NCBI GenBank assembly: GCA_964016885.1 | Contig: OZ024741.1 | Coordinates: 51,026,001 to 51,090,000 of the forward strand | DNA length: 64,000 nt | Reading direction: 5' to 3' | From: Eledone cirrhosa | Lineage: Eukaryota | Shown: positions 32,382 through 32,920 of the stretch, one piece after another | Layout of the letters: every line of letters starts with the position of its first letter | Numbering within the stretch: the first letter of the stretch is position 1 | Notes under the pieces: generated by a model | What the model was told of the DNA's origin: nothing | Databases searched by the model: none | Seen by the model: the letters and a program-made list of their open reading frames with translations, nothing else | Made by a program: the position numbers and the translations under genes

Positions 32382-32920
32382 TATTAGAAAGTGAGGCTTT
32401 TTTTTACAAAATGAAAAATAACCGAGGTGTCCTACACGAGTGTAAGTATAAAGAAAAAGAGATGAAATCGAAAATGCAACTGAAGTCTTATTTTTTTTTT
32501 TTTTTTTTTTTTTAAATATATATATTTATTTGGTTCCTTTACCGGTTTCGCAGTTCTTCTGCTTTTCAAAAGGTGAGTTGAGATGGAGGGTCTGTGGTTT
32601 TTCTCAAGTGGATGATGGCAGTTGCACAAAAAAGTTTCAGGTGTTGTGTGCAGAAGAAAGCCAGAGAAAGAGATCAAGGAAGATGTGGTGACAGATTCAG
32701 GTGTTATGGGCTGAAGACCAAGGAAGATGTGGACAGATGTGGTGAAAGCTGATGTCAGGATAGTGAAAAAACCACAGACCCTCCATCTCAACTCACCTTT
32801 TGAAAAGCAGAAGAACTGCGAAGCCGGTAAAGGAACCAAATAAATATATATATTTAAAAAAAAAAAAAAAAAAAAATAAGACTTCAGTTGCATTTTCGAT
32901 TTCATCTCTTTTTCTTTATT
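32382..32920. mobile_element. Fold-back HHR element with a foreign spacer; tail also at 56558-56690
   Basis: Arms ~32449-32602 and ~32767-32920 are reverse complements. Confidence 0.85.
32536..32573 (-). ncRNA. Minimal hammerhead, U3-A8 variant
   Basis: CCTT-TTGAAAA-GCAG.AAGAA.CTGC-GAAA-CCGG-TA-AAGG. The + arm copy at 32796-32833 has GAAG. Confidence 0.75.

Follow-up and report, generated by a model that had tools for sequence, protein, structure and literature searches.

Hammerhead motifs with a U3-A8 core in PLE-type and tandem repeats of an animal genome

The minus-strand motif at 32536..32573 raises the question of whether a hammerhead core carrying U3-A8 instead of C3-G8 is a genuine motif in this genome, how common it is there, and whether it arose in independent families. 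The window, by which we mean the whole stretch of 64,000 nucleotides analysed here, comes from an animal assembly of 3.0 Gb, has a G+C content of 32.5%, is rich in TA and CA microsatellites throughout, and contains several ORF fragments of Penelope-like elements (PLEs).

Read from 32573 to 32536, the motif comprises in order a stem I of 4 bp, UUGAAAA, a stem II of 4 bp closed by a 5-nt loop, GAA, a palindromic stem III of 6 nt, A17 and the partner strand of stem I, with the cut predicted between 32540 and 32539. Together these parts make a full minimal type I hammerhead; its U3-A8 core had been proposed by the initial annotation, with exact coordinates. The same descriptor found complete U3-A8 motifs at the other sites proposed there (4743, 57513 and 57866), and the UUGACAA of the 615-bp array proved to be five complete U3-A8 hammerheads by a long-loop descriptor and the minimum-energy fold. 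For UUGAGAA near 33510, offered as a possible further case, membership of a U3-A8 family (family K) was upheld, but the copy is truncated and decayed and its partner carries C3-A8. Further U3-A8 sites had been overlooked: at 37712 (+) there is a UUGACAA motif that is complete, and three other motifs combine U3-A8 with C13. Short-loop descriptors overlook the 615-bp array and the family M motifs, for which a long-loop descriptor was needed. The type I hammerhead core (U4, G5, A6, N7, A9, G12, A13, A14, A15.1-U16.1 and H17, with three stems) was present in families A, B, M and K and in the 615-bp unit, in all of which the Watson-Crick 3-8 pair is U-A in the consensus, mismatches being a minority. 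The free variation at position 7 that had been suggested is textbook knowledge (PMC2837043), and all four bases occur there in family M. The motifs and the features used as comparators are collected in Table 1.

Table 1. Hammerhead motifs and comparator features in the window
Feature	Position	Strand	Basis or remark
Minimal type I hammerhead of family A, U3-A8 and A7, palindromic stem III	32536..32573	-	Descriptor, dimer fold
Family A inverted partner, A15.1 changed to G	32796..32833	+	Descriptor, fold
Family A copy (site 4743), 3-bp stem I	4739..4776	+	Descriptor
Family B hammerhead (site 57866), U3-A8 and U7, UUGAUAA, long interrupted stem I	57863..57905	+	Descriptor, fold
Family B hammerhead (site 57513), inverted copy, UUGAUAA	57474..57516	-	Descriptor
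615-bp tandem array, five complete UUGACAA hammerheads, U3-A8 and C7	5398..8734	-	Long-loop descriptor, fold
Family M hammerhead (site 37712), complete UUGACAA, U3-A8 and C7, stable stems II and III	37707..37802	+	Fold, family pattern
Family K copy, U3-A8 and G7 (UUGAGAA), decayed, wobble-paired	33480..33514	-	Descriptor
Family K inverted partner, mismatched C3-A8 core	33550..33584	+	Descriptor
Family A' motif, U3-A8 and C13, stem I of 2-3 U-A pairs	33246..33275	+	Descriptor, fold
Family A' motif, inverted copy	33171..33200	-	Descriptor
Family A' motif, third copy	14455..14484	+	Descriptor
Comparator: canonical C3-G8 hammerhead, family H	12593..12641	+	Descriptor
Comparator: Hydra-type PLE endonuclease ORF	28183..28866	+	Downstream hammerhead at 30334 is C3-G8

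Several of these motifs stand in inverted pairs. The two family A motifs at 32536..32573 and 32796..32833 form the arms of a fold-back, the inverted partner lying 230 nt from the copy at 32569, and this fold-back is predicted to lock both motifs in read-through RNA; because of that predicted hairpin, the copy at 32569 is probably inert. Near 4663, the inverted partner of the other family A copy has a broken core. Both family B motifs are complete, and in each of them stem III is a 12-nt palindrome. The family K copy on the minus strand is a 5'-truncated member of its family. In the 615-bp array, where no long ORF was seen, U3 falls at positions 5796, 6411, 7026, 7641 and 8256; the motif has a stem II arm of 78 nt and a stem III arm of 36 nt, its stems comprise 5, 5 and 6 pairs including G-U with the long-arm descriptor, and its minimum-energy fold is a three-stem junction (z of -1.19). 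A relative of this motif occurs at L170 4991. Family H contributes six cores to the window, some of which are not intact.

Besides the hammerheads, the window holds Hydra-type PLE ORF fragments at 21946-24341 (677 codons followed by a frameshift into the endonuclease), 42163-43222 and 61886-62449, a mariner-type transposase remnant at 48779-49576 (-) with HTH_48 and HTH_32 matches, and long open frames rich in Asn, Ser, His and Thr across CAA/CAG-rich repeats at 10668-12422. Family M has also left short, perfect fold-backs devoid of a core at 5087-5230, 38190-38330 and 63864-64000; these remnants account for Rfam microRNA hits.

As regards the elements that carry the motifs, family A is found behind a 1.0-kb untranslated region, about 1,040 nt downstream of an ORF that encodes an RT and a GIY-YIG endonuclease with a CX4CxxC linker (Pfam RVT_1, E 1.8e-6, just short of the cut-off; GIY-YIG, E 1.9e-5), and an RT and endonuclease ORF is likewise found upstream of A', A2, C and the C3-G8 family G. 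The PLE ORFs of the window itself were not recognised in a Pfam search, and a PDB search returned nothing useful. A CX2-5CxxC linker and a GIY-YIG domain at the C terminus are common to A, A', A2, C and G and match the Neptune clade (Craig et al., 2021, PMC8557442), so these families appear to be Neptune-type PLEs, an assignment made from linker motifs alone with a tree devoid of named reference elements. The endonucleases upstream of families K and M carry the CxCX5C linker, CxxC and CxH motifs of the Hydra clade (Craig et al., 2021, PMC8557442), and from these motifs, with the same kind of tree, the two families may be classed as Hydra-type; this group also contains several C3-G8 families, and a third PLE group has C3-G8 links only. 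For elements of the YRDD type, the label Nematis was dropped since their motifs fit Hydra better. Traits of EN+ PLEs were found as 5' truncation, inverted 5' copies, direct terminal repeats and (TA)n targets, as seen in the inverted pairs of the window, the direct repeats of loci L097 and L364 and the microsatellite flanks; (TA)n insertion is common to Neptune and Hydra EN+ PLEs and the elements described here (PMC8557442). Retrozyme-type units in which no ORF was seen are B (about 316-324 nt), N (591 nt) and the 615-nt array.

Family N is a tandem and inverted repeat of 591 nt with a long-stem U3-A8 hammerhead, found at a single genomic place (L342 6358-8352). Other retrozyme-like arrays were observed at L190 281-3381 (310-nt units, C3-G8, 11 copies) and at L101 4977-6557 (316-nt units, U3-A8, 6 copies).

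Core types were counted genome-wide, as the initial annotation had proposed, with a pattern consisting of the core, 8-18 nt, GAAA and a 6-nt stem III with a strong second pair. This pattern gave 147,488 matches for all core types together against 16,276 in the control. U3-A8 cores accounted for 8,000 plus 21,939 matches (controls 3,705 and 4,289; net 21,945), and the mismatched cores were far rarer, with 4,747 matches for C3-A8 (control 2,643; net 2,104) and 9,537 for U3-G8 (control 4,159; net 5,378); C3-G8, obtained by subtraction, had 103,265 (control 1,480; net 101,785). Net of controls, U3-A8 makes up 17.7% of the paired cores. One local satellite supplied 46 of 100 C3-A8 rows among the matches listed, and one purine-rich repeat without a stem II supplied 48 of 100 U3-G8 rows; about half of the mismatched rows among the matches listed are non-ribozyme repeats. 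A pattern with an 8-nt stem III added 77,944 matches (control 19,677), the top family being C3-G8.

The descriptor used on the window was also applied to a random sample of 40 evenly spaced 10-kb stretches (400 kb), where it found 57 C3-G8, 8 U3-A8, 5 U3-A8 with C13, 3 C3-A8 and 2 U3-G8 cores, together with 17 other hits of which 12 were artefacts in one array; a single tandem array supplied 11 of the 57 C3-G8 hits. The window, with 9 C3-G8 and 13 U3-A8-type hits, is enriched in the latter (13 of 22 paired cores versus 13 of 70 in the 400-kb sample). Among families found at two or more separate places, counted by eye at clustered loci with sampling aimed at U3-A8, about 9 have U3-A8 and about 16 have C3-G8, and no family in this set has a mismatched 3-8 consensus. 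The proposal that the variant is unusually common in this genome did not hold, at about 18% of the paired cores versus about 39% published for S. mansoni PLEs (PMC4209133), and its description as a rare natural variant suits hammerheads at large but not PLE hammerheads; the U3-A8 frequency is not unusual for PLE-rich genomes. Searches tied to the C3-G8 and A13 consensus overlook about one fifth of the motifs. A U-U mismatch at 10.1-11.1, the first pair of stem II, is common in both C3-G8 and U3-A8 motifs.

With its family pattern, family A has 13,514 copies; a count of 0 family A copies without A8 was set aside as implausibly low given a decay of about 1% per site. Four families fall outside the genome-wide pattern used for the core counts: A' has 11,160 copies, M 5,716, K 1,570 and B 981. 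Among the matches listed for family K, U3 was present in 98 of 100 and A8 in all 100, and among those of family M A8 was invariant (100 of 100), C3 occurred in 11 of 100 and position 7 took all four bases. The family B matches listed comprised 94 of 100 with U3-A8, 4 with U3-G8 and 2 with C3-A8. Two-sided changes affected 5 of the 22 pairs of family B, all five being among the 11 pairs that adjoin the core, and the covariation score was reached by none of 500 shuffles, in an alignment of 16 hand-picked rows with their relatedness uncontrolled. At L069 and L070, family B tandem pairs carry U3-G8 in both units.

Damaged cores are also present at high copy number. In A', position 13 is C in 99 of 100 of the matches listed, with another base in only 135 copies, and stem I is absent in folds, even when the motif is cofolded as a dimer. 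The family lacks the A13 of a hammerhead ribozyme and, judged from its sequence, is hammerhead-derived and not classed as a ribozyme. Locus L364 contains a near-full-length Neptune-type A' element whose two terminal repeats, on either side of the RT and endonuclease frames, each carry the C13 motif, and a descriptor scan found no further hammerhead on the same strand. Contigs from a sequencing run labelled as another organism (X6) match the A' motif without differences across position 13, a weak hint that the motif may predate this genome. For family M, C3-A8 is present in 7 of the 10 rows, among the matches listed, that share a particular core and beginning of stem II, and in some inverted pairs (L333-L341) both arms have it, which points to a source element as its origin. 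It seems that PLEs can multiply even when their ribozymes are crippled (C13 in A', C3-A8 in M). Families C and A2 have a weak stem I, of 2 bp in A2 and with a mismatch at its first pair in C.

Cofolding of the 47-nt family A motif (32569) gave a hammerhead dimer, its stems I and III intermolecular, that lies 7.5 kcal/mol below two monomers, and a family K copy also cofolded as a dimer with intermolecular stems I and III; such a dimer fold was absent for the 4743 copy and for A'. PLE hammerhead dimers are reportedly a subject of Lunse and co-workers (2017). Family A junctions numbered 79 at the predicted cut, 49 three bases downstream and 30 three bases upstream, the three counts having unequal filters and many of the 79 being TA-microsatellite microhomologies; no clear accumulation of junctions at the cut was seen.

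We consider it fairly probable (about 0.7) that the U3-A8 motifs are hammerheads of PLE terminal repeats and of their non-coding tandem derivatives, with predicted weak self-cutting and, for the palindromic ones, likely action as dimers. The natural U3-A8 core is stated to be active in vitro (PMC3088659). In one mutational scan of a type III hammerhead, as far as the available text of that source goes, the pair was rescued by the G-C swap alone, other double mutants of that construct being low (PMC9901934), for which reason U-A may be a poor core; set against the activity in vitro, this indicates that context matters. For the dimeric S. mansoni motif, cleavage is described as low but detectable (PMC4209133). 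Cleavage of PLE hammerheads is described as protein-assisted and, in the available text, as unnecessary for insertion in vitro, where hammerhead mutants did not block insertion of the Poseidon PLE (PMC11167929), a result which the C13 of A' and the C3-A8 of M fit.

The alternative is that U3-A8 motifs no longer cut at all and persist as structural signals, which would serve to bind protein or to initiate reverse transcription, or as passengers in decay, U-A marking lineages that drift out of catalysis in an AT-rich genome. Further damage does cluster in the U3-A8 Neptune-type clade (C13 and stem I loss in A', and also A2 and C), the L364 element carries no same-strand hammerhead other than its C13 motifs, the C3-A8 sub-lineage of M has spread, and both the low activity of U-A (PMC9901934) and the dispensability of cleavage in vitro (PMC11167929), as given in the available text of these sources, agree with a loss of cutting. 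Nevertheless, U4, G5, A6, A9, G12, A14, A15.1 and U16.1 are retained, along with the complementarity of 3 and 8, in families that have proteins 40-70% identical and flanks that look unrelated by eye; strong stems are retained in B, M and the 615 unit, and B shows compensatory changes; and plain decay would yield mismatched consensus cores, of which none was found at family level. We therefore regard a complete loss of cutting as unlikely, though it deserves real weight.

If the U3-A8 motifs are weakly self-cutting PLE hammerheads, lineage-level selection would keep the 3-8 pair Watson-Crick, the pair would have switched between C-G and U-A at least three to four times among PLE lineages, and thousands of neutral copies would have received their core state from their source element. 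Since the copies decay neutrally, copy counts reflect source elements and not per-copy selection. Weak self-cleavage might trim precursor RNA or free circles; cutting would help to release unit-length RNA, with circles in the case of the 320- and 615-nt repeats. It would be dispensable for each jump, so that damaged cores (C13, C3-A8) could still amplify.

In an endonuclease tree of 34 pieces and 153 columns (12 labelled U3-A8, 13 C3-G8 and 9 unlabelled), in which the direction of change is unoriented and which does not include B, N and the 615 unit, the core label changed four times, at least three of these changes being forced by well-supported branches. The C3-G8 label of L185, whose hammerhead belongs to another element, was removed before the AU test; four changes were still found after its removal, and a single U3-A8 clade was rejected (p-AU of 7e-5, AU test with a quick tree). 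A, A' and A2 form one clade (support of 100/99) and therefore share one origin. The family C protein is 51% identical to that of the C3-G8 family G versus 47% to that of A; the RT tree of the Neptune-type group, from which one empty row was omitted, was poorly resolved with long outgroups, and joined C and G at only 85/82, a weak branch. From the endonuclease tree, several origins of U3-A8, or reversions, are likely. The initial annotation had spoken of several independent families, which stands insofar as several distinct families exist, with three to four switches on the tree and one clade rejected, but the sites at 4740 and 32536 are a single family, and A, A' and A2 a single clade.

A single ancestral change to U3-A8, inherited by all families and made frequent by bursts of one lineage, is highly improbable and already disfavoured. 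The strongly supported clade of A, A' and A2 is indeed the source of most U3-A8 copies, and terminal repeats could recombine between elements in a way invisible to a protein tree; yet U3-A8 occurs in two deep PLE groups, the Neptune-type (A, A', A2 and C) and the Hydra-type (K and M), both of which also contain C3-G8 families, the stem architecture and flanks are unlike between the groups, and one clade was rejected. Chance, with the 7-mers and stems as random matches in AT-rich repeat DNA, is refuted by the shuffle and pattern controls, for although the bare core 7-mer is frequent in the window, mostly without stems, and an Rfam search (E up to 1) gave no hammerhead in the best 150 of 257 matches, which were microRNA-type matches to microsatellite hairpins, the descriptor found nothing with a C/U3 and G/A8 core after local dinucleotide shuffling of the window (20 shuffles), the family patterns, when reversed as controls, had 0 or 1 match versus thousands of family copies, and the motifs keep a fixed location downstream of PLE endonucleases.

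The closest known system is the set of minimal hammerheads of S. mansoni described in 2014, with about 1,300 U3-A8 and about 2,000 C3-G8 motifs (Cervera and de la Pena, PMC4209133). The metazoan PLE motifs of that kind share with ours the type I topology, a short stem III that is palindromic, a predicted dimeric form, a place in the terminal repeats of PLEs, occurrence as inverted pairs and U3-A8 at high copy number (PMC4209133). Unlike those of S. mansoni, the motifs found here comprise over 40,000 copies of U3-A8 type, spread over at least nine families and two PLE groups, and there are also families with long stable stems and one with C13, whereas the U3-A8 share is lower (about 18-20% versus about 39%) (PMC4209133). 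The compensatory swap, the U10.1-U11.1 mismatch and weak stems were also described by Perreault et al. (2011) for a handful of U3-A8 examples, C13 not being among the variants that the available text names (PMC3088659). Like non-LTR retrozymes, B, N and the 615 array are built of tandem units that each carry one type I hammerhead and in which no ORF was seen (PMC7229834), and their unit sizes lie within the published 51-972 bp (PMC7229834; Li et al., bioRxiv 10.64898/2026.07.22.740005); they differ from the retrozymes reported in the available text in having U3-A8 cores, and our units are known from DNA alone (PMC7229834).

The genome is mostly a large new example of already published swapped-core PLE hammerheads; the U3-A8 swap itself is not new, and the new results are the counts, the test on the tree and the family carrying C13. 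A literature search, with figures and supplements outside its scope, found neither a natural C13 hammerhead nor a cephalopod U3-A8 census. The role of PLE hammerheads is regarded as an open question (PMC8557442), and well over 100,000 motifs, with matched C3-G8 and U3-A8 sister families and damaged cores at high copy number, provide natural pairs for asking how much cleavage a PLE requires. The part most worth attention is the C13 family. We suggest tentatively, and with the odds somewhat against it, that the genome serves as a natural experiment on the purpose of PLE hammerheads, in which the at least three to four flips between C-G and U-A and the more than 11,000 copies of A', an autonomous-type family inside a U3-A8 clade, mean either that U3-A8/C13 cuts, maybe with the help of the element's protein, or that a dead ribozyme spreads with its shape kept for some other role. 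If this were true, A' would represent either a new active core or the spread of a PLE in vivo despite a dead ribozyme.
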